A DNA stretch of 64,000 nucleotides, taken from positions 1-64,000 of the IMG/VR virus record IMGVR_UViG_3300032038_000014; one strand, given 5' to 3'. Made by a program: the position numbers and the translations under genes. Positions within the stretch are counted from its first letter, which is position 1, and each line of letters starts with the position of its first letter. The notes under the pieces were generated by a model, which saw only the letters and a list, made by a program, of their open reading frames with translations, did no database searches and had not been told where the DNA came from. Source of the DNA: a virus. Taxonomy: Duplodnaviria; Heunggongvirae; Uroviricota; Caudoviricetes. Shown piece by piece: positions 8,580 to 51,708 of the stretch.

Positions 8580-8654
8580 ATCAGTACCTCCTTTTGATAT
8601 TCCTATATATAAATGAAAAATTAAGATTTTTAGCTAATGACATTTGTCCGATAT

Positions 8655-8683
8655 TTGATTTTTTATAAATATTATCATATAAT
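8655..8683 (+). promoter_or_regulatory. Sigma70-like promoter for the plus-strand accessory operon
   Basis: TTGATT at 8655-8660, 17 bp spacer, TATAAT at 8678-8683. It lies in a divergent intergenic region upstream of an AGGAGG RBS. Confidence 0.45.
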
Positions 8684-8717
8684 TATTATATAATAAAAAT
8701 ATAAGGAGGTTTTTCAA

Positions 8718-9590
8718 ATGCCAGTTAATGATGACTTAGGAAAAAGAATGAAAGAAAATTATGAGCAAGTTTCCAAAACTCGTTTGGTAAAAAGAATGCC
8801 AGTAGCAATTAGACTGGACGGAAAAGCCTTTCATACTTTTACAAAAGGTTTTCAAAAACCATTTGATCAAATTTTAATGAGAACTATGCAAGAAACCATG
8901 AAGTATCTTTGTGAGAATATTCAAGGCTGCGTATTTGGATATACACAATCTGATGAAATTACTCTCATTCTTAAAGATTACACAAAACTTGAAACTTCTG
9001 CATGGTTTGACTATGAAGTTCAAAAAATGTGTTCTGTGTCTGCTTCAATGGCAACTATGGCTTTTAATCACATCTTTTCTCAAAAGGTTGTAGATTATAA
9101 CAACGCTCTTTATGAAGCATGGAATATATCTAATGATGATATAAAATATTCAGACACTTTACTTAATGCAGCTCAAAAAGGAGCAATGTTTGATGCTCGT
9201 TGTTTCAACATTCCAAAAGAAGAAGTTGCTAATTTAATCTATTGGCGTCAAGTTGATGCAGTTAGAAATTCTATTCAAATGGTTGGGCAAGCTAACTTTT
9301 CACAAAAACAACTTCATGGAAAATCTTGTAATATGATTCAAGATATGCTTCTTCAAGAAAAAAATATTAATTGGAATCATTTTTCAACCGATTGTAAAAG
9401 AGGAAGTTGTTGCATTAAAAATCATTATAATATAGATGGAATTTCTCTCTTTAGACCTGGAAGATTCGGAGAATGGATTATTGACCGAAATATTCCAACA
9501 TTTAAAGGTGGAGATAGATATTATATCGAAAAATTCCTTAAATCTGATGATGAAAAAACTCAAGAAGAATTAAAAATGGGAATTGTATAA
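8718..9590 (+). CDS. Thg1-like protein (tRNA-His guanylyltransferase family; 3'-5' nucleotidyl addition / tRNA 5'-end repair)
   Basis: N-terminal KRMKENYEQ...PVAIRLDGKAFHTFTKGFQKPFDQ...MQETM matches the conserved Thg1/TLP core (KxMKxYE, vRlDGraFhkF, eKPnD). Strong AGGAGG RBS. Confidence 0.65.
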   Translation: MPVNDDLGKRMKENYEQVSKTRLVKRMPVAIRLDGKAFHTFTKGFQKPFDQILMRTMQETMKYLCENIQGCVFGYTQSDEITLILKDYTKLETSAWFDYEVQKMCSVSASMATMAFNHIFSQKVVDYNNALYEAWNISNDDIKYSDTLLNAAQKGAMFDARCFNIPKEEVANLIYWRQVDAVRNSIQMVGQANFSQKQLHGKSCNMIQDMLLQEKNINWNHFSTDCKRGSCCIKNHYNIDGISLFRPGRFGEWIIDRNIPTFKGGDRYYIEKFLKSDDEKTQEELKMGIV

Positions 9591-9811
9591 TGAAAACTAA
9601 AGAACAAATTGAAAAAGAAATCGGCTTTGGAGATTGTTTTACCGTCGATGAGTTTGCAGACTATGTAACAAAGGGTTATTTTAATCGTTATGATGGAGTC
9701 GGATATTTTCATGACGGAGAAAATCAAACTAGAATTAGTGTTTGGGCTGATGTCGATACAGTACTCGAAGCAAGAGATACTTATCCGTATGTAATGTGGT
9801 ATAACAAATAG
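9590..9811 (+). CDS. Hypothetical protein (73 aa)
   Basis: Start overlaps the stop of the Thg1-like gene (TAATG). Confidence 0.4.
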   Translation: MKTKEQIEKEIGFGDCFTVDEFADYVTKGYFNRYDGVGYFHDGENQTRISVWADVDTVLEARDTYPYVMWYNK

Positions 9812-9826
9812 AAGAAAGGAGTTATT

Positions 9827-10624
9827 ATGACAGTTCAAGATAGAGTAATAGATCATTTAGTAGAAGCATCTGATATGTTTGCTTCTGATAGAATAGTTGG
9901 AATATTCCTTCAAGGAAGCCAAAACTATGGTCTTGAATTGCCTACTTCTGATGTAGACACAAAACTCATAGTAACTCCTTCCTTTGAAGAAATAGCTCTT
10001 AATAAAAAACCTCGTAGCACAACTCATATACGAGCCAATAACGAACATACTGATATAAAAGATATAAGACTTTATATGGATACTTTCAAGAAACAGAATC
10101 TTAATTTCCTTGAAATATTATTTACTCCATATAAATCTGTTAATGTTATGTATGAAGATCAGTGGGATCGTCTTGTTACCAGAAAAGAAGATATAGCAAG
10201 AATGAATCCTTATAGAGCGGTAAAATCTATGAAGGGTATAGCTATGGAGAAATGGCATGCTATGGAGCATGAATATCCAAGTAAAGTTGATGTTCTCGCT
10301 AAATTCGGTTATGATCCGAAACAGCTTCATCATCTTCTTCGTGTTGAAGATTATATAGAACGCTATATAGCTGGAGAACCATATGCGGATTGCTTGCGGC
10401 CATCCGATCCTGGGTATCTCATGGACGTGAAAATCGGAGTATTAAATTTAGATCTTGCCCGTCGTATAGGCCAACGAGCAATTGATCATGTAATAGAAAT
10501 GGCAGATAATTTTTGTAATAATATTGAGCCAAGTGAAGATCCGGATTGCGTTGAACTTCTTCGCGATGTTCAAATGGAAATAATGAAAAGGTCAATAAAA
10601 AAGGAGATAGCACATGGGATATAA
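9827..10624 (+). CDS. Pol-beta-superfamily nucleotidyltransferase (RNA-repair-associated predicted NTase type)
   Basis: GS-x10-DVD motif (GSQNYGLELPTSDVDTKL) = hG[GS]x9-13Dh[DE]. ~265 aa with a helical C-terminal domain. GAAGGAG RBS. Confidence 0.55.
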   Translation: MTVQDRVIDHLVEASDMFASDRIVGIFLQGSQNYGLELPTSDVDTKLIVTPSFEEIALNKKPRSTTHIRANNEHTDIKDIRLYMDTFKKQNLNFLEILFTPYKSVNVMYEDQWDRLVTRKEDIARMNPYRAVKSMKGIAMEKWHAMEHEYPSKVDVLAKFGYDPKQLHHLLRVEDYIERYIAGEPYADCLRPSDPGYLMDVKIGVLNLDLARRIGQRAIDHVIEMADNFCNNIEPSEDPDCVELLRDVQMEIMKRSIKKEIAHGI

Positions 10625-11396
10625 TAAGTGGTATGTTTCCGGCGATACACATGCAAATTTTTCTCGGTTTCATGCTTTAAAAGAGGAGAAAGATATTGCA
10701 GTAATCGTTCTTGGAGATACTGCTCTTAATTGGAATCTTAATGAGCATGATACCAGCCTAAAAGCATCTCTCAGTAAACGCTGGCCTGAGATTACATGGT
10801 ACATCCTTCGTGGAAACCATGATGCAAGGCCATCCGCAGTCCAAAATATAAAAACAGATTGGGACGATGAAGTTCAAGGATATGTAATGTATGAGCCAAA
10901 TTTTCTCAATATTCGTTATCTACTGGATGGAGGTGAATATATTATAGATGGCTATTCTGTTCTTACTATTGGAGGGGCTTATTCAGTAGATAAATATTAT
11001 CGTCTTGAAAATGGTTTTAGATGGTTTTCTGATGAACAATTAACTGAAAAAGAAATGAGAAATATCGAAAACATTGTTCGTAGTAAAAACTATGACTTTG
11101 TTATGACTCATACTTGTCCATATTCTTGGCGTCCTGTAGATTTATTCCTATCTGGATTAGATCAATCAACAGTTGATAATACTATGGAATTATGGTTGGA
11201 AGGATTAAAAGATGCTTTTACTTGGAATATTTGGTTGTTTGGTCATTATCATGCAGATCGTCTTGAGCGTCCGCATGTAGAGCAGTACTTTAATACAATA
11301 GAAGAATTATCTACTATATGGAATCGTTGGAACGATGAAAGTCGAGAATTAGAATGGTGGATAAGAAAAGCTCCTAATTATTATATGGGTGCTTAA
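10614..11396 (+). CDS. Calcineurin-like metallophosphoesterase
   Basis: Motifs GDTHAN, GDTALN, RGNHD, GHYH. Confidence 0.65.
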   Translation: MGYNKWYVSGDTHANFSRFHALKEEKDIAVIVLGDTALNWNLNEHDTSLKASLSKRWPEITWYILRGNHDARPSAVQNIKTDWDDEVQGYVMYEPNFLNIRYLLDGGEYIIDGYSVLTIGGAYSVDKYYRLENGFRWFSDEQLTEKEMRNIENIVRSKNYDFVMTHTCPYSWRPVDLFLSGLDQSTVDNTMELWLEGLKDAFTWNIWLFGHYHADRLERPHVEQYFNTIEELSTIWNRWNDESRELEWWIRKAPNYYMGA

Positions 11397-11427
11397 AAAG
11401 GAAGGGTTGAAACCTTCCTTTTATTTA
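11396..11427 (+). terminator. Rho-independent terminator
   Basis: GGAAGGGTT gaa AACCTTCC stem followed by TTTTATTTATT; the T-run doubles as the upstream part of the next promoter. Confidence 0.6.
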
Positions 11428-11456
11428 TTGATTTTTTATTAAAAATTTGTTATAAT
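11428..11456 (+). promoter_or_regulatory. Sigma70-like promoter (TTGATT, 17 bp spacer, extended -10 TGTTATAAT)
   Basis: TTGATT at 11428-11433, TATAAT at 11451-11456. Confidence 0.5.
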
Positions 11457-11490
11457 AAATTATAAGAAAAAATTAAGGATAGAGATTTTT

Positions 11491-12279
11491 ATGAAATATT
11501 TTATTGACTTTGAAGCAACTCAGTTTTCTAACGAAATCATCTCGATTGGTTGCGTTAGAGAAAACGGAGATGAATTTTATTCATTAGTAAATCCAAAAAA
11601 GAAAATAACTGCTTTTATTACGGAGTTAACTGGTATTACAGATGAAATGCTCCAGACAGCTCCTACACCAGAGCAGGTTTTTAGTCAGTTTTTTGATTGG
11701 TGTGCAGAAGTCGAAGATGATTTACCTATTTTTTATTGCTATGGTAATTCAGATATTCATTTTGTACAAAAGAATTTTAGCAAGTCAAAGAATTTTAAAG
11801 CCAAGAATATTCTTGGGTATCTCTATTCCGATCTTTATGACTATGAGCCTATGGTCAGAAAGCATTTTGGTTTAATTCAAGCTGTAAGTTTAATTAAAGT
11901 TACTAATTATTACAAGCAGGAAGAAATAACTCAAAATCATAATGCTTTATCAGATGCTAAAATGTTAAAGTTTGTTTATGAACAGATACAAGAACACACT
12001 CCATCTGAAGATAGAGATGCTTTTCCAGAATATCAGAGTAAACAGACTCAGCCTCAGGAAGATTGGTCTAAATATACCGTTCATAGAATCAAAAAAGGAA
12101 AAATTGAAGAAACTTTTGTTGGCATGGATGCGGCCGTTGATTGGGTATTTAATCAGCTTCCAGATAATGGTGAAAAAGATAAAGTTATTCGTAAAAATTT
12201 AGCAAATAAGATTAAAAATTCTAGTAATACACGAAAGAAATATTTAACTTATCGTTGGAAAGTGGAAAAAAAGAAATAA
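11491..12279 (+). CDS. DEDD-family 3'-5' exonuclease (DnaQ/RNase T-like)
   Basis: Exo I motif FIDFEAT near the N-terminus, Exo II-like YGNSDIHF, Exo III-like HNALSDA. Confidence 0.6.
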   Translation: MKYFIDFEATQFSNEIISIGCVRENGDEFYSLVNPKKKITAFITELTGITDEMLQTAPTPEQVFSQFFDWCAEVEDDLPIFYCYGNSDIHFVQKNFSKSKNFKAKNILGYLYSDLYDYEPMVRKHFGLIQAVSLIKVTNYYKQEEITQNHNALSDAKMLKFVYEQIQEHTPSEDRDAFPEYQSKQTQPQEDWSKYTVHRIKKGKIEETFVGMDAAVDWVFNQLPDNGEKDKVIRKNLANKIKNSSNTRKKYLTYRWKVEKKK

Positions 12280-12302
12280 ATTATAGAAAGGAGAATTATT
12301 AA

Positions 12303-13742
12303 ATGAGTGAGCATGTAGGTTACATTGTAGAAGTTAAGCAGCTTCGTGAACACTCTAATGCAGATCGTATGCGTGTAGCAACTTTCTTCGGAAATGATAC
12401 TTGCGTAGATTTGAATGTTAAGATTGGTGATAAAGGAATTTATTTTCCAACTGACCTTCAGCTTTCTGTAGAGTTTTGTGAACAGAATAATCTCGTTCGT
12501 AAAAAGGACGAAAATGGAAACAACATTGGTGGATATATGGATCCTTCCAAGAGAAATGTTTCAACTATTAAGCTGCGTGGAGAAAAGTCTGATGGACTAT
12601 ATCTTCCAATTGAATGTCTTGCTTATACTGGAATTGATCTTAATTCCCTTTCTGTAGGAACTCCAATTGATGTAATTAATGCACATGAAATTTGTTGCAA
12701 ATATATCCCTCGTGGAAAAGTGCGTCATAGTAACAAGGAAGGTAATAGAACTCGTAAAAAGAAAGTTCCAGTAGCACCTCTATTTACAGAGCATGCAGAT
12801 ACAGAACAGCTTGCATATAATCTTGGAGAATTCCACCCTGGAGATCTTCTTGAAATCACTCTTAAAATGCACGGAACTTCACAGCGTACAGCATATGTTC
12901 CAGTTTTGAAAGGTTTTAAGAAAACTTTTTGGGAGAAAATCTGCGGGAAGCCAGGTCAGCCGATCTATGATTGGGGATATGTTTCTGGAACTCGTAGAAC
13001 TGTTCTTGACAACTTTGATGGTGGATTTTATGGATCTAATGACTTCCGTGAACCTCATTCTAAATTCTTTGAGGGAAAACTCCATAAGGGAGAAGAAGTA
13101 TATTATGAAGTAGTAGGTTTCCAGACTTCTGGAGCACCTATTATGGGATCTGCTGCAAACAAGAAAACTGCTGATAAGGAATTCATCAAACAGTATGGAG
13201 ATACAACTGTATTCTCTTATGGTTGCTCTCCAGAAGGATATAAGACAATGTATGGAAATGATGATATGGGAGCTTTTGAACTTCCAGTTGCTCTTCCTCA
13301 GTCTGATTTCTATGTATATAGAATGACTATGACAAATGAGGACGGGGATGTTATCGAATACACTCCAGAATATATGCGTTACCGTTGTGAGCAGATGGGA
13401 TGTAAAACAGTACCAGTTCTTGCAAAGGCATATGTTGATGAAAATTGTGTAGAAATTCTATGGGCTGCTAATCCTGCGGCCATCGATCATGCGATCACAT
13501 CAGCGGAGTCTCTTGGAGACGGAGTGCGTCAGGTAGCAGAATATTTCTACGATGGTCCAGATCCAGTTGGAAAGACTCATGTTCGTGAGGGTGTAGTTGT
13601 TAGAATTGTAAATAAACCAAAATTCTGTGCGTTTAAACATAAGAATTTCTACTTCAAGGCTCTTGAAGGAATCATAAAAGCAAGCGCTGAAGCACCAGAT
13701 ATGGAAGAAGCAGAAGAGGTTCTTAATGAAACAGCAGAATAA
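12303..13742 (+). CDS. ATP-dependent RNA ligase (Rnl2-like nucleotidyltransferase) fused to an N-terminal tRNA-binding OB-fold domain
   Basis: N-terminal VGYIVEVKQLREHSNADRMRVATF resembles EMAP/Trbp111-type tRNA-binding domains. KMHGTS matches the KxHGT(N) motif I of T4 Rnl2-type ligases. GC3-richer codon usage than neighbouring genes. Confidence 0.55.
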   Translation: MSEHVGYIVEVKQLREHSNADRMRVATFFGNDTCVDLNVKIGDKGIYFPTDLQLSVEFCEQNNLVRKKDENGNNIGGYMDPSKRNVSTIKLRGEKSDGLYLPIECLAYTGIDLNSLSVGTPIDVINAHEICCKYIPRGKVRHSNKEGNRTRKKKVPVAPLFTEHADTEQLAYNLGEFHPGDLLEITLKMHGTSQRTAYVPVLKGFKKTFWEKICGKPGQPIYDWGYVSGTRRTVLDNFDGGFYGSNDFREPHSKFFEGKLHKGEEVYYEVVGFQTSGAPIMGSAANKKTADKEFIKQYGDTTVFSYGCSPEGYKTMYGNDDMGAFELPVALPQSDFYVYRMTMTNEDGDVIEYTPEYMRYRCEQMGCKTVPVLAKAYVDENCVEILWAANPAAIDHAITSAESLGDGVRQVAEYFYDGPDPVGKTHVREGVVVRIVNKPKFCAFKHKNFYFKALEGIIKASAEAPDMEEAEEVLNETAE

Positions 13743-13920
13743 ACTTTGCCCCTATAGAAAAGAAATCATAGTAACTGATTATCACTGGGAGGGGAATACT
13801 CCTCTTCCAGGAGCTTACTATGAAAGTTTTGGAGAATGTTATGGTGAATTATGTGCGGCCTGGCTTGAAGATCATTTTACTGGTTTTGAAGGTTGTGCAT
13901 TAGCGAGGAAAATGAAATGA
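13726..13920 (+). CDS. Hypothetical Cys-rich small protein (64 aa) overlapping gene ends
   Basis: ORF overlaps the ligase stop and the NADAR start; uncertain whether it is translated. Confidence 0.3.
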   Translation: MKQQNKLCPYRKEIIVTDYHWEGNTPLPGAYYESFGECYGELCAAWLEDHFTGFEGCALARKMK

Positions 13921-14354
13921 ATAAAATAGATTGTTTTGATGGAGATTTTGCTTTTTTAAGTAACTTCTATCCTTCTCTTATTAAGGAGGATGGATTAGAG
14001 TATCCTACTGTGGAGCATTATTTTCAAGCAATGAAAACTAATGATATATATGGTCGAAGACTTGTAGCAGTAGCTAGTACTCCTGGTAAAGCAAAACGAA
14101 TCGGACGCAATCTTCGTTTACGCAGAGATTGGGAAAATGTGAAATATGATGTAATGAAACATGCTGTTCATGAAAAATTTCTTGATGCAACTCTACGTAA
14201 ACAACTTCTCTCTACTGGAGATGCATATCTTGAAGAAGGAAACACTTGGCATGATAATATATGGGGCAATTGTCATTGTGAAAAATGTAAAGATATTCAA
14301 GGTACAAATTGGTTAGGAACTATTCTGATGGAAGAACGAAAAAATTGTCAATAG
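13917..14354 (+). CDS. NADAR (YbiA/DUF1768) domain protein
   Basis: DGDFAFLSNFYPS...LEYPTVEHYFQAMK matches the NADAR signature (F-x-x-x-x-x-LSNFYP ... EH-x-FQ-x-x-K). Start chosen at ATG 13917 with a GAGGAAA RBS; the upstream TTG at 13893 is less likely. Confidence 0.65.
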   Translation: MNKIDCFDGDFAFLSNFYPSLIKEDGLEYPTVEHYFQAMKTNDIYGRRLVAVASTPGKAKRIGRNLRLRRDWENVKYDVMKHAVHEKFLDATLRKQLLSTGDAYLEEGNTWHDNIWGNCHCEKCKDIQGTNWLGTILMEERKNCQ

Positions 14355-14376
14355 GAGGGAGCTTAAAACCTCCTAT

Positions 14377-14404
14377 TGATTTTTTTATAAAATTTTGTTA
14401 TAAT
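14377..14404 (+). promoter_or_regulatory. Sigma70-like promoter overlapping the preceding terminator hairpin (14352-14376)
   Basis: TAGGAGGGAGCTTAAAACCTCCTA hairpin, then TTGATTTTTTT ... TTGTTATAAT. Confidence 0.5.
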
Positions 14405-14433
14405 ATATATGATAAAAAGAGAGAAAAAGAAAA

Positions 14434-15177
14434 ATGACATATACAACTAATATAACAGATGTTAATCCATATCATATTTGGATTGGTGATTATGGATTAA
14501 CAACAGATAATAAAACAACACAATTAGTAAATACTTATTTAAGCAATATTACTTATAAAGACCTCGAAGAAAAATTCGAGAGAAAGGAGTCAGATATAAT
14601 GAGTTTTGATTTTGGTAACATGTTTAATGGTATGTTCAAGCCTGTTGGACGTGGAATGTGTAAAATCGGAATGAATGGCAAGGTTGCTATTAAGACTTCT
14701 TCTGGTTACAAAACCTTTGACATTGATAAGAGAAAACTCGTTAACTGTGATAGTTTCGCTTTCGACATGGATGGTGCTTTTTGGGTAGTCCCAACATTTA
14801 AAGTCGAAAAGGGAGACATTATTCTCGTTAATGGAAAACCTCGTAGTGTCATTGAAGTAAAGGAAAATTCAATCAAAACTTTCTCTTATGAGGATAGTAC
14901 AATTGATGAAATTATTCCAGAACATCACGTCTTCCTTGGCAAAACTTACTGCTACGGCAAAATCTTCAGTCCTTTCATGAATATGGCTAAGGACAATGGA
15001 GAAGGTATGTCATCACTTATGAACATGATGATGATGAGTCAGATGTTTAGCGGAAACTCCAATGATGGAATGAATCCATTTATGATGATGATGCTTATGA
15101 ATGGAAATGATAACCCATTTGCAAATCTTTTTGAAGGAGCATTTAACTTTGGAGTAGATGAAGAAAGTGAGGGTTAA
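14434..15177 (+). CDS. Hypothetical protein with Met-rich low-complexity C-terminus (247 aa)
   Basis: C-terminal MNMMMMSQMF...PFMMMMLMNG tracts. 3 nt from the downstream vWA gene, so translational coupling is likely. Confidence 0.5.
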   Translation: MTYTTNITDVNPYHIWIGDYGLTTDNKTTQLVNTYLSNITYKDLEEKFERKESDIMSFDFGNMFNGMFKPVGRGMCKIGMNGKVAIKTSSGYKTFDIDKRKLVNCDSFAFDMDGAFWVVPTFKVEKGDIILVNGKPRSVIEVKENSIKTFSYEDSTIDEIIPEHHVFLGKTYCYGKIFSPFMNMAKDNGEGMSSLMNMMMMSQMFSGNSNDGMNPFMMMMLMNGNDNPFANLFEGAFNFGVDEESEG

Positions 15178-15179
15178 TT

Positions 15180-16064
15180 ATGGGAAGCGGAAGTTGGTCA
15201 AGTACGGTATATGATAGTTATACAACTGCAACAAAAGGAATGAGCACTGCTGCATATGCATCAGCAGTAAATCTTTCAACACAAGACATTTTCAAAAGCG
15301 TTAGCCTTCATAAGGATCTCAATCCAATGAATGTAATACGTGAGTGTTGCGATAGCGAGGAGCATCCAAACACTTTTCCAGTTATCCTCGCTCTTGATGT
15401 AACTGGAAGTATGGGCCAAGCCGCTATTAAAACTGCTCAGAAGCTCAATGATATTATGACTGATTTATATGCAGATAAAGATCTTCCAGATATTGAATTC
15501 TGCATTATGGGAATCGGAGATTGTTCTTGCGATAGATTTCCAATTCAAATTTCTCAGTTTGAATCTGATATTCGTATTGCTGAACAGCTTGACCAGATTT
15601 TCTTTGAATTTGGTGGTGGCGGAAATAAATACGAAAGCTATACTGCGGCTTGGTATATGGGGGCTAGACATTGTAAACTTGATTGCTGGGAGAGAGGTCA
15701 AAAAGGTTTAATTATTACCATGGGTGATGAACTTCCTAATCCTTATATTCCAATTAGAGGAATGAGAGATGGAGGCCTCAATGAGGTAACGGGTGATTCC
15801 CTTCAGGATGATATTGAAACTAAAGATCTTCTTCCAGAAGTACTTGAAAAGTTTAATGTATATCATCTTTCAATAGATGATTCAAGTTCGTCATATAGCT
15901 ATCATCAGAGACTTGGAATTGATGAAGAATGGACAGAGTTACTTGGAGACCATTACCAAGTATGCAATCTTGATAATCTCCCAAAAGTAATTACTGAAAT
16001 TGTTATAGCCAATAGCAAAGGAGGAGGAATTACTGTTAATTCTGATTCTGAAATAGTTTGGTAA
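15180..16064 (+). CDS. von Willebrand factor A (vWA) domain protein
   Basis: MIDAS motif D-x-T-G-S-M in VILALDVTGSMGQAA, downstream ITMGDE. Confidence 0.6.
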   Translation: MGSGSWSSTVYDSYTTATKGMSTAAYASAVNLSTQDIFKSVSLHKDLNPMNVIRECCDSEEHPNTFPVILALDVTGSMGQAAIKTAQKLNDIMTDLYADKDLPDIEFCIMGIGDCSCDRFPIQISQFESDIRIAEQLDQIFFEFGGGGNKYESYTAAWYMGARHCKLDCWERGQKGLIITMGDELPNPYIPIRGMRDGGLNEVTGDSLQDDIETKDLLPEVLEKFNVYHLSIDDSSSSYSYHQRLGIDEEWTELLGDHYQVCNLDNLPKVITEIVIANSKGGGITVNSDSEIVW

Positions 16065-16076
16065 GGAGGGTTTGCG

Positions 16077-17243
16077 ATGAAAGATATTAAGATTGTCATC
16101 GGCGCCAATTATGGTGATGAGGGTAAAGGATTAGTTACTAGGCACTTTGTTCGAGAAGCTAGTAATCCAATTGTTATACTTCATAATGGAACCGCACAGA
16201 GAGGACATACTGTTGATTATGGTCCAAACTGTCGCCATATATACCATCATTTTGGTAGCGGCACAGCTGACAATACACCTACCTTCTTCGCAGATACTTT
16301 CTGGATTCATCCAATGAGTTTTACTCTTGAGTGGAAAGAATTGGAATATAAAGGTGTTAAGGTACCTAGGTCTTTTGCAGATGATAAATGTAGAGTAGTT
16401 ACTCCATTTGATATGTTTGCAGACCATGCAACTGAAGCATATATTCAGTTAGAAAGAGGCGAACGAGAATTCGGTTCTTGCGGCCTAGGTACCTGGTGCG
16501 CGACGGATAGGTTTCCAGTTCATTCTTATTTGCTTAAATCTTGGTATAAAGCCGTACAAGGTTGTCTTAATAATCAAGAAGCATATTATGTTAGTTTAAT
16601 GGAACACTCTCTTGACGAGTGTTTAAAAGTATTAAAATCTCGTAAGGTTGATTTAGAAAAATTACCTACTTATAAAAGATATTTTGATAAAACAGATGGT
16701 CTTTTTAAATATCTGTGCAATAACTTTTTAAGAGATTTAATTTTCTTCTTTGGTCATTGTGAGCGTATTAGCTTTGATAATATTTATGATAGATATAACA
16801 CTTTAATTTTTGAAAATGGACAGGGTCTTGGTCTTGATATGGATGTCGACAATGATTGGCATACTACTTCGCATACGGGTTTGGTAAATCCTATGGCGTT
16901 ACTTGCGGGCAGGACCGATCCTCAAGTCGAGGTATGTTATGTTACACGCTCATATCTTACTCGTCATGGAGTAGGACCGTTAGAAGAAACGGTTAAAAAA
17001 ACAGAAATAAATGCAACAATGCATGATTTAACCAATGTACCAAATGAATTTCAGGGCACTCTTCGATATGGTTATCTAGATGATGTTGCACAAGCAGCTA
17101 GAATAGAAAAGGATTGGAATCTGGCCGCAGGTTTATCGAATTTTAAAAAGACAATGGCAGTAACTCATTGTAATGAGTTTGAGGATCTTTATCAGAAAGC
17201 AAATTATGTTAGTTATAATCCATATAGTATATTAAAACGGTAA
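16077..17243 (+). CDS. Adenylosuccinate synthetase family protein (PurA-like; PurZ-like candidate)
   Basis: N-terminal P-loop IVIGANYGDEGKGL (PurA GxxWGDEGKGK), GTAQRGHT (PurA GGHNAGHT), and GSCGLGTW in the GTTGRGIGP position. Shorter than bacterial PurA (388 aa). Confidence 0.65.
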   Translation: MKDIKIVIGANYGDEGKGLVTRHFVREASNPIVILHNGTAQRGHTVDYGPNCRHIYHHFGSGTADNTPTFFADTFWIHPMSFTLEWKELEYKGVKVPRSFADDKCRVVTPFDMFADHATEAYIQLERGEREFGSCGLGTWCATDRFPVHSYLLKSWYKAVQGCLNNQEAYYVSLMEHSLDECLKVLKSRKVDLEKLPTYKRYFDKTDGLFKYLCNNFLRDLIFFFGHCERISFDNIYDRYNTLIFENGQGLGLDMDVDNDWHTTSHTGLVNPMALLAGRTDPQVEVCYVTRSYLTRHGVGPLEETVKKTEINATMHDLTNVPNEFQGTLRYGYLDDVAQAARIEKDWNLAAGLSNFKKTMAVTHCNEFEDLYQKANYVSYNPYSILKR

Positions 17244-17281
17244 AATAAAATAATTGCTATCACTAGCAATTATTTTATTTA

Positions 17282-17310
17282 TTGATTTTTTTATAAAAAT
17301 ATATTATAAT
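17282..17310 (+). promoter_or_regulatory. Sigma70-like promoter after a terminator hairpin (17251-17274)
   Basis: ATAATTGCTATCACTAGCAATTAT hairpin; TTGATT at 17282-17287, 17 bp spacer, TATAAT at 17305-17310. Confidence 0.5.
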
Positions 17311-17359
17311 TATTATAGAAAATGAAAAATATGTAAAATAGAAAGAGGTGAGTTATTCT

Positions 17360-17740
17360 ATGAAAGATAAAAAAAGAAGAAAAGCACAAAGTAAAATTAA
17401 TAAAAGTGTAAGACTTCTTAATAAAAACATTCATGATGATTACCTTTGGCGTGGACGTTTTTATGTGCGTCAAACGGATGCTCATTGGGAACGTTTTGAA
17501 GATGGTTCTGGTGGAATTCTTACTGTATGGCTAGAAATTAGAGATAAAAAAACTGGCCGTTATATGGGATTTTCAGTAGATAATTATGCTTCTAGAGGTT
17601 GGAAACTTTTTGAAGCTGGAAATCAGTTTATTGCTGAATATTCTGGTGTATGGGATAATATTGATGCTGTAAAAGCAGATACAACAAATTGGGATAAAGT
17701 GGATTGGGTTCCAAAAGAAGAGATTTATTATAGGGGGTAA
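17360..17740 (+). CDS. Hypothetical protein (127 aa)
   Basis: ATG at 17360 with a GAAAGAGGTG RBS; the ORF-track GTG at 17348 is less likely. Confidence 0.45.
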   Translation: MKDKKRRKAQSKINKSVRLLNKNIHDDYLWRGRFYVRQTDAHWERFEDGSGGILTVWLEIRDKKTGRYMGFSVDNYASRGWKLFEAGNQFIAEYSGVWDNIDAVKADTTNWDKVDWVPKEEIYYRG

Positions 17741-17744
17741 TATT

Positions 17745-18479
17745 ATGGCAAAACATTATGCAATAGCAGATATTCATGGTATGTATGATATTTATACACA
17801 AGTATGTGATATGCTAGAGCCAGATGATGTCGTATATTTCCTTGGAGATGCTGGAGATCGTGGATATGATTGTTTCCGTTGTGTGAAAGAAATTTATGAG
17901 AATCCACAATGGATTTATATGAAAGGTAATCATGAAGATCTTATGGTTAAAGGACTTCGTGAACAAATGTATCATGGTCTTAAAGGAACTGAAGATTTTC
18001 AGCTTTGGCATTATAATGGTGGAGGAGCCACTTTTTATGATTGGGTAAATGATGGAGAAGATTGGACTTGGATAGAACGCCTTGATAGTTTACCAGTCCT
18101 TCTAGAATACACAAATCCAAAAGGAATCACTTTTCATATGAGCCATGCTGGTTATACCTGTGGTCATAAAGATGAAATGTGGAATGATGAATTAGTTTGG
18201 TCTAGAAATCATTTCGCAGATTCTTGGGACGGAGAATTTTATCCAAACGATATATGTATTCATGGTCATACTCCAATTGAATATCTAGTTAGAAAACTAA
18301 ACTGGCTCGAAAAAGGTACAAAACCTTATTATGTTGGACAACCAGAAGCAAGAAGTTATTGTAATGGACATAAGATTTGTATTGATAATGGAGTTTTTTA
18401 TACAAAATCAACTGTTTTATATGATTTAGATGAAATGGTAGCAATACCGCTATATAGCAATTCTGACTTTGAATGGTAG
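17745..18479 (+). CDS. PPP-family Ser/Thr phosphoprotein phosphatase (lambda-phosphatase / ApaH-like)
   Basis: GDIHG, GDAGDRGYD, GNHE motifs with the canonical spacing. Confidence 0.7.
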   Translation: MAKHYAIADIHGMYDIYTQVCDMLEPDDVVYFLGDAGDRGYDCFRCVKEIYENPQWIYMKGNHEDLMVKGLREQMYHGLKGTEDFQLWHYNGGGATFYDWVNDGEDWTWIERLDSLPVLLEYTNPKGITFHMSHAGYTCGHKDEMWNDELVWSRNHFADSWDGEFYPNDICIHGHTPIEYLVRKLNWLEKGTKPYYVGQPEARSYCNGHKICIDNGVFYTKSTVLYDLDEMVAIPLYSNSDFEW

Positions 18480-18488
18480 GAGGGAACC

Positions 18489-18773
18489 ATGGGAAGATCA
18501 AATGTAGAACAACATAAATTCTTTTGTATTCAGTGTGGGCAGGAGGGTATCCCACTAGCCCGCAAGAAAAATCGTAAGAGAGAGCGTTTTCATCGCAAAG
18601 TAATGTATTGTTATCATTGTCACGAAGATATTAATCATGTTGAATGTCGCGATGAAGAAGATATAAGAATTTTTAAAGAGAATTTTAGAAATGGGGTGTA
18701 TCAGAATGAGTGCAAAGAATCTTTGGATCATGTGCGGAATACCAGGCAGTGGCAAGTCAACTTGGTGCTCTAA
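18489..18773 (+). CDS. Zinc-ribbon protein (94 aa)
   Basis: CIQCG ... CYHCHEDINHVEC. Its 3' end overlaps the PNK gene by ~68 nt. Confidence 0.4.
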   Translation: MGRSNVEQHKFFCIQCGQEGIPLARKKNRKRERFHRKVMYCYHCHEDINHVECRDEEDIRIFKENFRNGVYQNECKESLDHVRNTRQWQVNLVL

Positions 18774-19209
18774 GGCTGCAAAAAAACCAGGAGCAATAAG
18801 AGTATCTCGTGACGTTATTCGTTTTAATATGCTTGAAGAAGATGAAGATTATTTTGCTCATGAGTTTGATGTATTTAGAGAATTTATTAAGCAGATTAAT
18901 GAAGGGTTAGCTGATGAAAAGGTTAAAGATATTTTTGTTGATGCAACTCATTTAAATGAAAAGTCTAGAAATAAGGTGCTTGATCGCCTTATTAATCTTG
19001 ATGGAGTAGCAATTAATGCGGTTAATTTCTTAATTGATTTCGATCTCGCGTGGGAAAGAAATAACTTGCGGAAAGGCCGCGCTGTGGTTCCATATGGTAA
19101 ACTTTGCGGTATGAATAAAATTTTCAATCCTGCAAAAGAAGGCGAAAAGTATCATTATGACAATATTATAAATATTAATGTTGCAAAGGACGGTGATGAA
19201 ATAGTATGA
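18706..19209 (+). CDS. Polynucleotide 5'-kinase (T4 Pnk-like P-loop kinase domain)
   Basis: IMCGIPGSGKSTW ... VSRDVIR parallels T4 Pnk TIGCPGSGKSTW ... NRDDYR. Start chosen at ATG 18706; the alternative is ATG 18691. Confidence 0.6.
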   Translation: MSAKNLWIMCGIPGSGKSTWCSKAAKKPGAIRVSRDVIRFNMLEEDEDYFAHEFDVFREFIKQINEGLADEKVKDIFVDATHLNEKSRNKVLDRLINLDGVAINAVNFLIDFDLAWERNNLRKGRAVVPYGKLCGMNKIFNPAKEGEKYHYDNIININVAKDGDEIV

Positions 19210-19760
19210 TATATGTAACTTCAGATTTGCATTTTTGTCATGATAGAGAATTTCTCTATAAGCCAAGAGGTTTTGACAATGTTTACGATATGAATAAAGC
19301 TATTGTTCAAAATTGGAATTCAATAGTACAGCCAGAAGATGATGTATATCTTCTTGGTGATATTATGTTGAATGATAATGAACTCGGTCGTAAACTGCTA
19401 TGCGATCTGAAAGGTAATATACATATTGTCATTGGAAATCATGATACAGATGCAAGAGTAGAAATTTACAATAACTGCTGGAATGTAGTAGAAATTGCTT
19501 ATGCTTTGAGATTGAAATATAGAAAACATACTTTCTTTCTTTCTCACTTCCCTTGTATGACCGCAAATCTTGAAAAAGAGTCTTTGCGTCAATGTACTTG
19601 CAATTTGTACGGACATACGCATCAAAGAACTAATTTTTATCAAGACATTCCATTTATGTATCATGTTGGAGTAGATTCTCATAATTGTACTCCAGTATCT
19701 ATGGATCAAGTCTTGTTAGATATGTATGCTAAAGCTGATGAATGTAAGAAACAGCTATGA
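19206..19760 (+). CDS. Calcineurin-like metallophosphoesterase (candidate 2',3'/3'-phosphatase partner of the kinase)
   Basis: SDLHF, GDIMLND, GNHD, GHTH motifs; translationally coupled to the kinase (ATGA overlap). Confidence 0.6.
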   Translation: MIYVTSDLHFCHDREFLYKPRGFDNVYDMNKAIVQNWNSIVQPEDDVYLLGDIMLNDNELGRKLLCDLKGNIHIVIGNHDTDARVEIYNNCWNVVEIAYALRLKYRKHTFFLSHFPCMTANLEKESLRQCTCNLYGHTHQRTNFYQDIPFMYHVGVDSHNCTPVSMDQVLLDMYAKADECKKQL

Positions 19761-19809
19761 CATAAATAAATAATTTTTACAACTTAATAAGAGAAAAAGG
19801 AGAAATTAG

Positions 19810-21201
19810 ATGAATTTTTTGACTAGTCATTTAACCCTAATTCCGATTGTTATAGTTGCCGTTTTGGTGATTATACTCCTAATTACAGGATATGTAAAAG
19901 CACCGCCTGATATGGCTTATATTATTTCAGGATTGCATAAAAAGCCTCGTATCCTTATAGGAAAAGCCGGAATTAAGATTCCATTCCTCGAGAGACTTGA
20001 TAAACTTTCTCTTGGAGCGATTCAGATTGATGTAAAAACTGGATCCGCCGTTCCAACAGCAGAGTATATCAATGTTAGAGTCGATTCGACGGTTTCAGTT
20101 CGAATTGGTCAAAGTCCAGAGATGATTACTCTTGCAGCACAAAACTTCTTAAATGTTGGAAGAGATGTAATTGCGGCCAAGGTCAATGATCTCCTCGAGG
20201 GTAACATTCGTGAGATTGTAGGCCAGATGAAACTGACAGAAATGGTAAGTGACCGAAAAGCATTTAGTGAAAAGGTACAAGAAAATGCTGTACCAGATCT
20301 TCAGCGCTTTGGTCTTGAACTAGTATCCTTCAATGTACAGAACTTCTCTGATGATAGTGATGTTATTAATAACCTCGGTATTGATAATGTATCACAGATT
20401 AGTAAGGCTGCAGCTATCGCTAAGTCTAATGCCGAACGAGAAGTTGAAGTTGCAAAAGCTGCCAATGCAAAGGCTGCGAATGATGCTAAAACGGACGCAG
20501 CAGAGCAGATTGCAATTCGAAATAATGACTTTGCAGTAAAGCAGGCAGAACTTCAGAAAATTGCTGATACACAGAAAGCACAGGCTGAAGCAGCTAAAGA
20601 TATTGAGGCAGAAAATCAGCGTAAAATTCGTGATGTTGCAGCAACAAATGCAGATATTGCGAAGGCTGAGCGTGAAGCAGATCTGAAACAAAAACAGATT
20701 GAACTGAAAGAGTATGAACTTGATGCTCTGGTTCGTAAGCAGGCTGATGCTGACAAATATGCTGCTGAACAGAAGGCTGCTGCAGATCTTATTCGTCGTC
20801 AGAAAGACGCAGAAGCTGCTGCATATGAAATTAAGCAGAAAGCAGATGCTCTAAAAGCAGAGGCTGAAGCTAAACGATTTGCAGCAGAGCAAGAGGCTGC
20901 AGGTATTGCCGCAGTTGGAGAAGCCGAAGCTACAGCCATTGAGAAAAAAGCAGAAGCACAGAAAAAGATGGGAGAGGCTTCAGTCCTCGACATGTATTTC
21001 CAGGTACTCCCAGAAATTGTTACCGCTGCTGCTCAACCTCTTGGCAATGTAGACGCAATCACTATGTATGGTGATGGAAATTCTACAAAACTCGTTAAGG
21101 ATGTTATGAATTCTACTAATCAAGTACTTGAGGCAATTAAGTCTACTACTGGAATTGATATTAACAATCTTATTAACGTAGTTTCTAAAACAAAAGAGTA
21201 A
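19810..21201 (+). CDS. SPFH/Band-7 (flotillin/YqiK-like) membrane protein
   Basis: N-terminal TM helix, PHB-domain core (ISGLHKKPRILIGKAGIKIPFLERL...), and a long Ala/Glu/Lys-rich flotillin-type coiled coil. Confidence 0.7.
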   Translation: MNFLTSHLTLIPIVIVAVLVIILLITGYVKAPPDMAYIISGLHKKPRILIGKAGIKIPFLERLDKLSLGAIQIDVKTGSAVPTAEYINVRVDSTVSVRIGQSPEMITLAAQNFLNVGRDVIAAKVNDLLEGNIREIVGQMKLTEMVSDRKAFSEKVQENAVPDLQRFGLELVSFNVQNFSDDSDVINNLGIDNVSQISKAAAIAKSNAEREVEVAKAANAKAANDAKTDAAEQIAIRNNDFAVKQAELQKIADTQKAQAEAAKDIEAENQRKIRDVAATNADIAKAEREADLKQKQIELKEYELDALVRKQADADKYAAEQKAAADLIRRQKDAEAAAYEIKQKADALKAEAEAKRFAAEQEAAGIAAVGEAEATAIEKKAEAQKKMGEASVLDMYFQVLPEIVTAAAQPLGNVDAITMYGDGNSTKLVKDVMNSTNQVLEAIKSTTGIDINNLINVVSKTKE

Positions 21202-29859: not shown

Positions 29860-31815
29860 ATGCAAGATATTCAAAAAATTGAATTATTAGTTGATCAGTT
29901 GAATCAAGCTACACAAGCCTATGATGAAGGCAAACCAATAATGACTGATAAAGATTGGGATAAAATGTATTTTACACTTCAATCTTTAGAAAGAGAAACG
30001 GGAATAATTTTACCAAATTCTCCAACTCAAAAAGTTGTTTATCAAGTGGTTAATAAATTAGAAAAAGTTAAACATAGTCATGCTATGCTTTCTTTAGATA
30101 AATCTAAAGAATTAAGCGACATAGCAGAGTTTTTAGGTACAGAGCAACCTTGGGTTGCAATGATGAAGCTCGATGGTTTAACTTGCTCTCTTACTTACGA
30201 GGGTGGTCAATTGGTATCTGCTGAAACTCGTGGAGATGGAGAAGTTGGAGAGAATATTTTGCACAATGCGTTCGTTATTAAATCAATTCCAAAACGCATT
30301 TCCTATCTTGATCGTTTTGTAGTAGATGGAGAGATTATTTGTACAGAACAGGACTTTGAAGAGTTTAAGGACGAGTATAAAAATCCTCGAAACTTTGCTG
30401 CTGGAAGTATTCGGCTTTTAGATTCTAAGGAATGTGAATCAAGAAAGCTTTCTTTTGTTGTATGGGATGTAATTGAAGGATTGCCTCATGCTAATTCATT
30501 TGTAGATAGACTTCTAATTGCAAATACTTTAGGATTTTATACTGTTCCAACATATCTCTCAAAAGGTCAAACATTAGAAGAGTTAGTTTCCACTATACAA
30601 CTCGTAGCTAGAAATATAGGATATCCAATAGATGGAGTAGTATTTAAATTTAATGATGTTGAGTACGGAAAAACTCTTGGACGCACATCACATCACTTCA
30701 AAAACGCAATTGCTTATAAGTTTTATGATGAAACTTATAAAACTCATCTACTGGATATAGAATGGACAATGGGACGTACTGGAGTTCTTACTCCAGTAGC
30801 CGTATTTGAACCAATCTGGATCGATGGTAGTTTAATAGAACGAGCAAATTTACATAATATTAGTGTAATGAAAACCCTTTTAGGGAAACCTTTTAAAGGA
30901 CAAACTTTATATATTTATAAAGCAAATCAAATTATTCCACAAGTGAAATCTGCGGATAATACAGATGAAAATGAAGTATTTTATATGGGACAGACTTTAT
31001 TTGAGCCTCCAAAAGAGTGTCCTATTTGCGGCCAGGCGGTACAAATTACTACACAATCTAATGGGGTAGAATTTGCAATTTGTAGCAATTCAGCTTGTGA
31101 AGGAAAGTTTATTAATCAACTTGACCATTTTTGTGGTAAAAAAGGATTAGATATTAAAGGTATTTCAAAAGCAACTCTTGGTAAATTAATTGAATGGAAT
31201 TGGGTTAATAGTTTATCTGATATATTTAAGCTAGATGAACATCGAACAGAATGGATGAATAAACCAGGATTTGGTCAAAAATCTGTTGATAAAATTCTTA
31301 ACTCTATTCAGGCCGCAAGATATACAACTTTAGAAAAGTTTATCTCTTCTCTTGGAATTCCATTTATTGGGCAAACGGTTTCAAAAGATTTAGTAAAAGT
31401 AATTCCGACATATAAAGAATTTAAAGAAAAAGCACAAAATAAATTTGATTTTGCCCAGTATCCTGGATTTGCAAGTTCTAAAACACTTGCAATATGGAAT
31501 TATAATTTTTCAGAAGCAGATAAAATTTATCCATATTTAATTTTTGAAGAACAAATAAAAGAAGAAACTAATAATAATCTTGAAGGAATTACTGTTTGTA
31601 TTACTGGAAAATTAAACCTTTATAAAAATAGAGCAGCTTTACAAGAGGCGATTGAAGCTGCTGGAGGTAAGGTTTCTAGTTCCGTTTCTGGAAAAACAAA
31701 TTATTTAATTAATAATGATATTACTTCCACTTCATCAAAGAACTTAACGGCTCAAAAACTTGGGGTTAAAATAATAACTGAACAAGACTTTTTCGACCAG
31801 TTCTTGACAAAATAA
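29860..31815 (+). CDS. ligA: NAD-dependent DNA ligase
   Basis: KxDG adenylation motif (MMKLDGLT), Cys4 zinc finger (CPICGQ ... CSNSAC), HhH region and C-terminal BRCT (ITGKLNLYKNRAALQEAIEAAGGKVSSSVS). Confidence 0.9.
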   Translation: MQDIQKIELLVDQLNQATQAYDEGKPIMTDKDWDKMYFTLQSLERETGIILPNSPTQKVVYQVVNKLEKVKHSHAMLSLDKSKELSDIAEFLGTEQPWVAMMKLDGLTCSLTYEGGQLVSAETRGDGEVGENILHNAFVIKSIPKRISYLDRFVVDGEIICTEQDFEEFKDEYKNPRNFAAGSIRLLDSKECESRKLSFVVWDVIEGLPHANSFVDRLLIANTLGFYTVPTYLSKGQTLEELVSTIQLVARNIGYPIDGVVFKFNDVEYGKTLGRTSHHFKNAIAYKFYDETYKTHLLDIEWTMGRTGVLTPVAVFEPIWIDGSLIERANLHNISVMKTLLGKPFKGQTLYIYKANQIIPQVKSADNTDENEVFYMGQTLFEPPKECPICGQAVQITTQSNGVEFAICSNSACEGKFINQLDHFCGKKGLDIKGISKATLGKLIEWNWVNSLSDIFKLDEHRTEWMNKPGFGQKSVDKILNSIQAARYTTLEKFISSLGIPFIGQTVSKDLVKVIPTYKEFKEKAQNKFDFAQYPGFASSKTLAIWNYNFSEADKIYPYLIFEEQIKEETNNNLEGITVCITGKLNLYKNRAALQEAIEAAGGKVSSSVSGKTNYLINNDITSTSSKNLTAQKLGVKIITEQDFFDQFLTK

Positions 31816-48303: not shown

Positions 48304-48844
48304 AATCATAGTATTAATAGGCGAAGCTGGAAGCGGTAAAGATACACTTATGCAAGGGGTTCTACAACAGAACCCCGACTTGCATGAGATTGTAAGCTGT
48401 ACCACAAGACCTCCAAGAGAAGGTGAGTTAGATGGAATTAATTATCACTTTATGACGGGAGAAGAATTTGGGGACAAAGTCTTAAATGGTGAAATGATAG
48501 AAGTAGCTTGTTTTAATAATTGGTTTTATGGAACAGGTTATGAGAGTCTAAGATCAGATTGTGTAAACATCGGAGTATTTAATCCAGAAGGGGTTGAATC
48601 ACTACTTGTTGCAAAAGATGTAGAAATTAAAGTCTTTTATGTGCGGGCAGCCGATAAAGAGCGTCTATTACGCCAGCTTAACAGAGAGGAAAATCCTGAT
48701 TGTTTAGAAATTATTAGGCGTTTTAGAACAGATCTTTTTGATTTTGAAGATTTAAACTTTGATTATACCGAATTAAAAAATGATACCATGGAAGATTTTG
48801 AGCGCAATGTACAGATCATAGGAGCCAGCGCCGCAGTCTTTTAA
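48296..48844 (+). CDS. gmk: Guanylate kinase-like nucleoside monophosphate kinase
   Basis: P-loop LIGEAGSGKDTL and the GMP-binding signature SCTTRPPREGELDGINYHF (cf. SxTTRxxRxGExDGxDYxF). Confidence 0.7.
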   Translation: MYKIIVLIGEAGSGKDTLMQGVLQQNPDLHEIVSCTTRPPREGELDGINYHFMTGEEFGDKVLNGEMIEVACFNNWFYGTGYESLRSDCVNIGVFNPEGVESLLVAKDVEIKVFYVRAADKERLLRQLNREENPDCLEIIRRFRTDLFDFEDLNFDYTELKNDTMEDFERNVQIIGASAAVF

Positions 48845-48931
48845 GGGCAAAAAAGGACAAAAAATTAGAAATAAAATCCATATATAGTGATAGGCAGTTT
48901 CTGCCTTACTACATTTAGATGGAGGATTTAT

Positions 48932-51208: not shown

Positions 51209-51708
51209 GCAGATATAACACTATATTAACAAATGATGTAGTGAACGGAGAAGGAGTTTGTGTCTCCTTCTTCGTTCAAGGTTGTCCTCATCATTGTCCT
51301 GGATGTTTCAATGAGGAAACTTGGGATTTTAAAGGAGGTCAACCTTATACCGAACATACTAAATGGGAAATTATAGAAGCCATTGGAGCAAACGGTATAC
51401 AGAGAAATTTTTCAGTCTTGGGCGGAGAACCTCTTGATGAACATAATCTGAAAATGACAGAAGAAGTAATTAGTGCGGTTCGAGCAGCATATCCAAATAT
51501 AAAGATCTTTTTATGGACTGGATATACGATTGAAGAATTATCATCTTCATTTGATAATAAGTTAGGAAAAATTTTAAATACAGTAGATGTTCTTATTGAT
51601 GGACCTTTTATCGAAGAACAAAAAGACTTGTCCTTAAAGTTAAGGGGGAGCAAAAATCAACGAATCTTTAGAAGAGATAGTGGAAGATTAGAGGAATCAG
51701 AAGAATAA
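51205..51708 (+). CDS. nrdG: Class III RNR activating enzyme (radical SAM)
   Basis: CPHHCPGC cluster, GGEP motif; coupled to nrdD. Confidence 0.85.
   Translation: MSRYNTILTNDVVNGEGVCVSFFVQGCPHHCPGCFNEETWDFKGGQPYTEHTKWEIIEAIGANGIQRNFSVLGGEPLDEHNLKMTEEVISAVRAAYPNIKIFLWTGYTIEELSSSFDNKLGKILNTVDVLIDGPFIEEQKDLSLKLRGSKNQRIFRRDSGRLEESEE

Follow-up and report, generated by a model that had tools for sequence, protein, structure and literature searches.

In the present study, we examined the gene at positions 13917-14354 (plus strand) of a 64,000-nucleotide stretch of viral DNA (positions 1 to 64,000 of the IMG/VR record IMGVR_UViG_3300032038_000014, Caudoviricetes; hereafter the window). The analysis confirmed that this is a genuine NADAR-family gene in an uncultured large phage. 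We lean modestly towards the reading that its product de-ADP-ribosylates single-stranded nucleic acid and so undoes the attack of a host ADP-ribosyltransferase (ART), by analogy with the phage NADARs called AdfN. This reading is preferred because family and fold agree, the active site maps one to one onto that of known NADARs, and the protein is a homologue of AdfN-Bas32/33, sharing with Bas33 a lysine (K60). It is further preferred because of the substitution pattern and of the promoter and terminator layout, because the gene keeps its place beside RNA end-healing and end-sealing genes, and because it adjoins a nicotinamide adenine dinucleotide (NAD) cassette in part of the related viral loci.

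The gene is an intact open reading frame (ORF) of 145 amino acids (aa), which starts with ATG at 13917 and stops with TAG at 14352-14354. An earlier note on this DNA had called a NADAR domain from the signature LSNFYP...EHYFQAMK, of which the two parts occupy residues 14-19 and 33-40, and this call was borne out by profile, structure and model comparisons. The Pfam NADAR profile PF08719 matched with 90.8 bits against a cut-off of 35.1 (E 1.5e-25, positions 10-160 of the 163 of the hidden Markov model), phrog_1017 with E 1.4e-40, and the NCBIfam model TIGR02464 with 93.7 bits, above its cut-off of 73.7. Among sequences of the PDB, E. coli YbiA (2B3W, E 6.9e-18) and the Phytophthora NADAR (8BAU, E 1.1e-9) were matched. 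An AlphaFold (AF2) model built from 40 homologues reached a predicted local distance difference test score (pLDDT) of 94.3, and it has the YbiA-like alpha-helical core with small flanking beta sheets. By Foldseek, the template modelling (TM) score of this model was 0.83 to 2B3W and 0.82 to 8BAU, the latter bound to ADP-ribose. The gene is under purifying selection, with ratios of nonsynonymous to synonymous substitution rates (dN/dS) of 0.12-0.15 against orthologues 85% and 68% identical. It belongs to a very large family, with 14,641 cluster representatives at E <= 1e-3, of which 8,106 remain at E <= 1e-10.

The active-site residues were mapped by HMMER alignment to 8BAU, indexed against the roles given by Schuller et al. 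2023. From the window NADAR to the Phytophthora nicotianae NADAR (PnNADAR), the equivalences are E33=E43, K40=K50, K60=K75, R64=R79, D71=D86, W72=W89, K76=R93, E107=E125, D113=D130 and W116=W133. Thus, all the active-site residues defined in 2023 are kept (E33, K40, K60, R64, W72, E107, D113 and W116). The catalytic Glu and Lys of PnNADAR (E43/K50), which are E88/K95 in the NADAR of E. coli C7, are E33 and K40 here, and the diphosphate ligands R79, W89, R93, D130 and W133 are R64, W72, K76 (Lys for Arg), D113 and W116. The alignment to YbiA that had been proposed as a check of the catalytic Glu came out positive: E33 is E48 of YbiA, and K40, E107 and D113 are also kept. In two NADAR alignments, the second of which (A2) held 40 database homologues, E33, K40, R64, W72 and D113 were invariant; K60, K76 and E107 were invariant in A2, and W116 was conserved in at least 90%.

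The position of PnNADAR E125 divides the superfamily, with Glu in YbiA-type proteins, Asp in DarT1-linked antitoxins and His in T4-type phage NADARs. This residue is Glu in both the window NADAR (E107) and YbiA, and His in T4 gp30.3; therefore, the window NADAR is YbiA-type, and is neither of the DarT1-linked antitoxin type nor of the T4 gp30.3 type. In agreement with this placement, the T4-type profile PF08010 gave 16.2 bits on the protein, below its cut-off of 36, and the protein begins at the YbiA core, its residue 10 aligning with YbiA residue 25.

For comparison we used experimentally studied NADARs, including AdfN-Bas32/33, YbiA and T4 gp30.3, with AdfN-Bas60 left aside. A tblastn search of 50,697 phage records found a homologue in 754, one of which was Escherichia phage HildyBeyeler, identified by its locus tags as BASEL phage Bas33. 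According to Johannesman et al. 2025 (PMC11825919), the NADARs of Bas32 and Bas33 are identical, and this protein (AdfN-Bas32) alone neutralises DarT1 toxicity and restores the plating of three phages on DarTG1 hosts. The window NADAR is 44% identical to it over the full length (bas33_0070, E 5e-32) and, as a stand-alone phage NADAR homologous to a validated AdfN, is a candidate for the AdfN class. Both proteins have about 145-150 aa, are without the N-terminal extension, and have in common the catalytic set, in which the positions of E107 and K60 are Glu and Lys. They differ in that AdfN-Bas32 has no CxCxxC insert and carries Gly where the window NADAR has H112, and in that the AdfN-Bas33 gene lies among nucleotide-metabolism genes of a T5-like phage whereas the window NADAR lies in an RNA-repair island. 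Anti-DarTG1 activity has been demonstrated for AdfN-Bas32 and would be a candidate function of the window NADAR.

The cellular comparison is E. coli YbiA (42% identity, E 7e-25), with which the window NADAR shares the core without extensions, the Glu at the subfamily-defining position and the fold. E. coli YbiA hydrolyses guanine-ADP-ribose (G-ADPr) and its cytidine counterpart (C-ADPr) in vitro, and it gave no protection against DarT1. It is unlike the window NADAR in being chromosomal, in a LexA-controlled operon and linked to the clearance of riboflavin intermediates, and in having Ala for K60, Asn for H112 and no Cys motif. Bas33 AdfN and YbiA are themselves 40% identical, and therefore the window protein cannot be assigned to housekeeping YbiA or to AdfN by sequence distance. 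The K60 position may be more informative. Its equivalent in C7 NADAR, K115 (PnNADAR K75), is needed in vivo against DarT1 and dispensable for catalysis; it is Lys in the window NADAR and in AdfN-Bas32. At this position YbiA has Ala and T4 gp30.3 has Gln, and on their own these two fail to rescue DarT1 toxicity. The pattern at this site thus appears to track DarT1 rescue in four proteins, which is suggestive and should be taken as a lead, not as a rule.

The remaining comparisons are more distant. The P. nicotianae NADAR resembles the window NADAR in fold and in its ADP-ribose contacts, which are kept except for Y84 to Arg and R93 to Lys, but it is eukaryotic and 27% identical, is extended at the N-terminus in its own way, and carries a long insertion behind the WG motif. 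DarG1 (E. coli C7; G. lovleyi 8BAT) belongs to the same superfamily, and the window NADAR has counterparts of its E88, K95 and K115, the last as the K60 that is invariant in A2. However, the catalytic Asp171 of DarG1 (C7 D171) is Glu107 here, its beta1-beta2-alpha1 N-terminal extension is missing, and the model fitted the DarT1-linked 8BAT poorly by Foldseek (TM 0.48, E 0.18); DarG1 also adjoins DarT1, whereas the window NADAR has no DarT1 as neighbour. T4 gp30.3 (AdfN-T4; PF08010) is likewise an orphan phage NADAR, early expressed and an anti-DarTG1 factor, but it has His at the E107 position and Gln at the K60 position, and it could be aligned only in part (22% identity, E 2e-4).

We infer the following course of events, in which the chemistry is drawn from homology to the ADP-ribose-bound Phytophthora NADAR and from the mutagenesis of E. 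coli C7 NADAR. A host-type promoter, recognised from its signals, would drive a four-gene unit of an RNase T-like exonuclease, an RNA ligase, a 64-aa ORF and NADAR. In the NADAR protein, K40, R64, W72, K76, D113 and W116 would hold the diphosphate, and E33 and E107 would lie on either side of the distal ribose. Hydrolysis would then cut the bond that joins ribose C1'' to the exocyclic amine of the base (N2 of guanine and, in YbiA-type enzymes, cytosine as well), so that ADP-ribose is released and the base is restored on single-stranded DNA or RNA. In this way, ADP-ribosylation set on phage nucleic acid by a host ART would be erased, as counter-defence like that of AdfN, and the countered toxin could be DarT1-like or pierisin/YarT-like.

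The chemistry expected here has been established for the family. The statement of the earlier note that NADARs hydrolyse guanine-ADP-ribose and neutralise DarT1 is correct according to the literature (PMC11543638); activity on guanine-ADP-ribose was published in 2023, on RNA in 2025 and on cytidine in 2026. All tested NADAR families, including YbiA-type proteins and three phage NADARs, hydrolyse G-ADPr on single-stranded DNA (ssDNA) and RNA, and YbiA-type NADARs hydrolyse C-ADPr too.

Several observations weigh against the eraser reading. The window was scanned with Pfam and/or PHROGs on most ORFs of at least 90 aa and by tblastn with the proteins of relatives, and no ART, DarT, KptA/Tpt1, sirtuin or macrodomain gene was found in its 64 kb. 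The DarG1-like arrangement of an ART or DarT gene beside NADAR was found neither in the window nor in the neighbouring genes of relatives, and among cellular relatives (139 flanking or fused proteins at 67 loci, matching 110 Pfam families) no ART/DarT family was in the 25 commonest. The N-terminal extension of DarT1-linked NADARs, which Schuller et al. 2023 connected with ssDNA binding, is absent from the window NADAR. YbiA, a housekeeping N-glycosidase of riboflavin intermediates that fails against DarT1, is nearly as similar to it as AdfN-Bas32 is (42% vs 44%), and the name of TIGR02464 points to a riboflavin function. Furthermore, the neighbourhoods that we compared come largely from related phages and are not independent, so that shared ancestry inflates their agreement. 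Overall, the proposal of the earlier note that the protein reverses host ADP-ribosylation survives in part: nucleic-acid de-ADP-ribosylation is the best explanation, but no ART, of host or phage, is tied to the window NADAR. Its anti-defence context fares similarly, since the neighbourhood is plausibly one of counter-defence, but the protein is YbiA-type, without the extension and the Asp of the DarT1 antitoxins.

Table 1. Features of the NADAR gene and of the surrounding RNA-repair island (positions in the window unless residues are stated).
Feature	Position	Strand	Remark
Thg1-like 3'-5' polymerase	8718-9590	+	upstream RNA-repair unit (8718..11396)
RlaP-like nucleotidyltransferase	9827-10624	+	upstream RNA-repair unit
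Metallophosphoesterase	10614-11396	+	upstream RNA-repair unit
Terminator-like hairpin (11396-11422), then TTGATT-N17-TATAAT promoter (11428-11456)	11396..11456	+	predicted start of NADAR unit
RNase T-like DEDD 3'-5' exonuclease	11491..12279	+	first gene of NADAR unit
RNA ligase, 479 aa	12303..13742	+	NADAR unit; PHA02142 OB domain + RNA_ligase, phrog_968
Cys-rich ORF, 64 aa	13726..13920	+	no family match
GAGGA ribosome-binding site	13905..13909	+	7 nucleotides 5' of NADAR ATG; read from sequence
NADAR gene, YbiA-type, 145 aa	13917..14354	+	ORF, profile, PDB and model evidence
Clade-specific H112/C119/C121/C124 motif	residues 112-124 of NADAR 13917-14354	+	homologue comparison (120 database, loci L011-L090)
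Terminator-like hairpin (14357-14374) + T-run right after NADAR stop, then TTGATT-N17-TATAAT promoter (14376-14404)	14357..14404	+	
Downstream unit, beginning with 130-aa ORF	17348..21201	+	conserved beside NADAR in relatives
Metallophosphoesterase	17745-18479	+	downstream unit; Zn-finger ORF next
Polynucleotide kinase AAA_33	18691-19209	+	downstream unit
Metallophosphoesterase	19206-19760	+	downstream unit
Band_7/flotillin protein	19810-21201	+	downstream unit

The genes around NADAR are listed in Table 1. The earlier note had placed the gene in a repair island; the island is present, but it holds genes of RNA, namely transfer RNA (tRNA), repair and not of DNA repair. The region 8718-21201 is an RNA (tRNA) repair island because it has Thg1-like, nucleotidyltransferase, RNase T-like, RNA ligase and polynucleotide kinase genes and three metallophosphoesterases. 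An intergenic cassette recurs in four gaps (8620-8690, 11396-11456, 14357-14404 and 17260-17310), in each as a GC hairpin followed by TTGATT-N17-TATAAT, and its sequence after the hairpin is TATTGATTTTTT..TAAAA..TGTTATAAT. The cassette would split the island into four units which look like early transcription units. Therefore, by this consensus pattern, NADAR is predicted to be the last gene of a unit (11491-14354) made up of the exonuclease, the ligase, the 64-aa ORF and NADAR itself. The TGA of the 64-aa ORF overlaps the NADAR ATG (ATGA), and translational coupling of the two is therefore suggested; the same ORF is conserved beside the RNA ligase in loci L003 and L005. After NADAR, three lineage-specific genes precede the second metallophosphoesterase of the island. 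No tRNA genes were found in the 64-kb window.

The three lineage-specific genes directly 3' of NADAR form a separate unit (14434-17243). The first is a 247-aa ORF that matches no family, the second encodes a vWA-like protein of 294 aa with a DVTGSMG motif (phrog_2971), and the third (16077-17243) encodes a protein of 388 aa that resembles adenylosuccinate synthetase but is highly divergent. The unit is limited to the lineage of the window (L003 and L005) and is absent in all 80 IMG/VR relatives. A Z-genome (PurZ) reading of 16077-17243 was tried and rejected: GDEGKG is kept, and the scores of 61 bits for PurA and 19 bits for PurZ are both far under the cut-offs.

This setting raises a narrower form of the eraser reading, in which NADAR would act on RNA only, as an arm of phage RNA repair that takes ADP-ribose off tRNA or mRNA bases. 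The attacker would then be an RNA-directed host ART, and cleaved RNA would be mended by the enzymes encoded nearby (nuclease, kinase/phosphatase, ligase, Thg1-like and nucleotidyltransferase). We hold this special case, which is contained in the wider reading, to be rather unlikely taken by itself. The predicted co-transcription with the exonuclease and the RNA ligase argues for it, as does the fact that the gene remains near those for polynucleotide kinase, metallophosphoesterases and RNA ligase across five or more gene orders; NADARs strip G-ADPr from RNA, E. coli YbiA favours RNA and cytidine substrates, and the ssDNA-binding extension is absent from the window protein. Nevertheless, AdfN-Bas32, the closest tested phage homologue, counters a DNA-modifying toxin, clustering in the early accessory region of a phage is weak evidence for a common pathway, and we found no report of NADARs reversing the RNA-ADP-ribosylating defence mentioned in PMC11825919. 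A stronger version, that NADAR is an integral eraser of RNA repair working with the exonuclease and ligase, and that a Cys3His knuckle could aid its recognition of RNA, is tentative at most and in our estimate similarly doubtful. If it is true, phage RNA repair would extend from the healing and sealing of ends to the reversal of chemical base modification.

For the relatives, we used the gene tables of contigs whose NADARs are 99-58% identical to that of the window, and we surveyed 80 IMG/VR loci by homology. In about 30 of these 80, the genes downstream of NADAR are those for a metallophosphoesterase, a polynucleotide kinase, a further metallophosphoesterase and Band_7. In 12 of the 80 viral loci, NAMPT/NAPRT, a 170-aa protein and NadE lie directly upstream of NADAR, often together with PncA, and the 170-aa protein matches macrodomain structures (E 4e-9 to 2e-6). 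The cassette of PncA, NAMPT/NAPRT-like, macrodomain, NadE and NADAR genes is found at L001:6536-10453 and L006:4895-8441, and also in L012, L015-L020, L022, L023, L029 and L030. It sets, in sister phages, the re-synthesis of NAD beside two different ADP-ribose eraser folds. At other loci, either an RNase T-like exonuclease with an RNA ligase or a nucleotidyltransferase with a metallophosphoesterase precedes NADAR. In a 247-kb phage, the genes on either side of NADAR are a metallophosphoesterase and an RNA ligase, and PnuC, an NMNAT-like gene and a YAcAr SLOG domain are close by. The link of NADAR to genes of RNA repair and of NAD/ADP-ribose thus persists through at least five gene orders. As a minor observation, the gene called 3' of NADAR at L001:10437-10856 is interrupted by an in-frame stop at its ninth codon when read with genetic code 11; another start site, an artefact of gene calling or recoding of the stop codon could explain this.

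These cassettes bear on the proposal of de Souza, Iyer and Aravind, by which phage NADARs, and so that of the window, would process low-molecular-weight ADP-ribose derivatives and not nucleic acid. The candidates are NAD-derived immune signals, toxic by-products or the products of NAD-dependent RNA end processing, handled together with macrodomain and NAD salvage proteins. It draws on the relatives in which NADAR directly follows NAMPT/NAPRT, macrodomain and NadE genes, or lies near PnuC, NMNAT and the YAcAr SLOG domain; the contextual argument is published (PMC9503650 and PMC7824862), and the phage has an NAD-dependent DNA ligase (29860-31815). We nevertheless regard it as improbable, for we found no report of a NADAR acting on such molecules. 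Moreover, KptA/Tpt1 and sirtuin, the makers of ADPr>p in RNA repair, were not found in the window or in six related loci, and NADAR is kept although the 64-kb window has no NAD-salvage or macrodomain gene; the same scan showed no Nudix gene in the window.

Very improbable is a housekeeping role as N-glycosidase for reactive riboflavin intermediates, as in YbiA, or as eraser for a phage-encoded ART: the score above the TIGR02464 cut-off and the YbiA resemblance (42% identity, TM 0.83) fit the former. However, neither the window nor the loci of related phages have riboflavin genes or ribA/ribD fusions, as would be expected of the riboflavin-linked YbiA subfamily, and a function in metabolite damage would leave unexplained why hundreds of lytic phages keep the gene next to genes of RNA repair and NAD; no ART gene was detected in the window.

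The preferred reading, nucleic-acid de-ADP-ribosylation against a host ART, does not overturn current understanding. The idea of phage NADARs in counter-defence is already published (PMC11825919, PMC9503650): their contextual link to RNA repair, NAD salvage and macrodomains was described in 2012-2022 (PMC9503650), and orphan phage NADARs were reported in 2025 as anti-DarTG1 factors in several unrelated phage groups (PMC11825919). If the window NADAR is active as predicted, it adds another phage lineage with an orphan ADP-ribose eraser, large, uncultured, from gut or rumen samples and probably infecting Clostridia, and it would suggest that such phages encounter base ADP-ribosylation as a defence. 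The lead worth following lies not in the domain call but in the stable siting by RNA end-healing and end-sealing enzymes, together with the NAMPT/NAPRT-macrodomain-NadE-NADAR cassette of sister phages. The clade therefore offers a good test case for two questions: whether RNA and not DNA is the substrate of YbiA-type phage NADARs, and whether NAD re-synthesis and ADP-ribose erasure work as one module.

One minor detail of the clade, for which we found no earlier description in the literature, is a motif beside the active site, W-H-D-N-x-W-G-x-C-x-C-x-x-C, present in all 120 of the nearest database clusters and in 75 of the 80 viral loci. Where CxCxxC is present, 175 sequences have His and 3 have Cys at position 112, and in the four scorable sequences without it this position varies among Gly, Lys, Cys and His. 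Both AdfN-Bas32, with Gly at position 112, and YbiA, with Asn, lack CxCxxC. Because position 112 covaries with CxCxxC, the motif suggests a predicted Cys3His metal site, probably for zinc, next to the catalytic D113 and to W116. In addition, a 177-aa protein at L005:2516-3049 (also in L029 and L032), encoded between RNA ligase and NADAR, carries a C-x-C-x-x-C sequence (CRCNAC).

In the cellular census, the families found most often near NADAR were MauE (8), Rhodanese (7) and DSPc (6), which come from an operon of Desulfobacterota. Eight contigs of metagenome-assembled genomes (MAGs) of this phylum (L098-L102, L110, L111 and L119) carry a conserved three-gene operon with a NADAR fusion of about 330 aa, in which some 180 N-terminal residues are joined to NADAR.

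The window belongs to an uncultured phage of about 155 kb. A megablast search of 11000-17000 against the 50,697 phage records gave no match, and therefore the phage has no close cultured relative. It encodes a holin, endolysins with GH25/CW_7 domains, gyrase-like topoisomerase subunits, a DnaB helicase, a primase and a PolIII-alpha-type polymerase, and its GC content is 33%. The closest phage-like loci are on contigs binned with MAGs of Clostridia, Acutalibacteraceae and Ruminococcus. An anaerobic host, probably a Firmicute of the Clostridia, is hinted at because of these loci, the GH25/CW_7 endolysins and the anaerobic ribonucleotide reductase NrdD/NrdG (48887-51708). Alongside NrdD/NrdG, a guanylate kinase and a dUTPase-family protein are encoded at 48296-48844 and 53049-53624, and the nucleotide-metabolism set of this phage is richer than usual.

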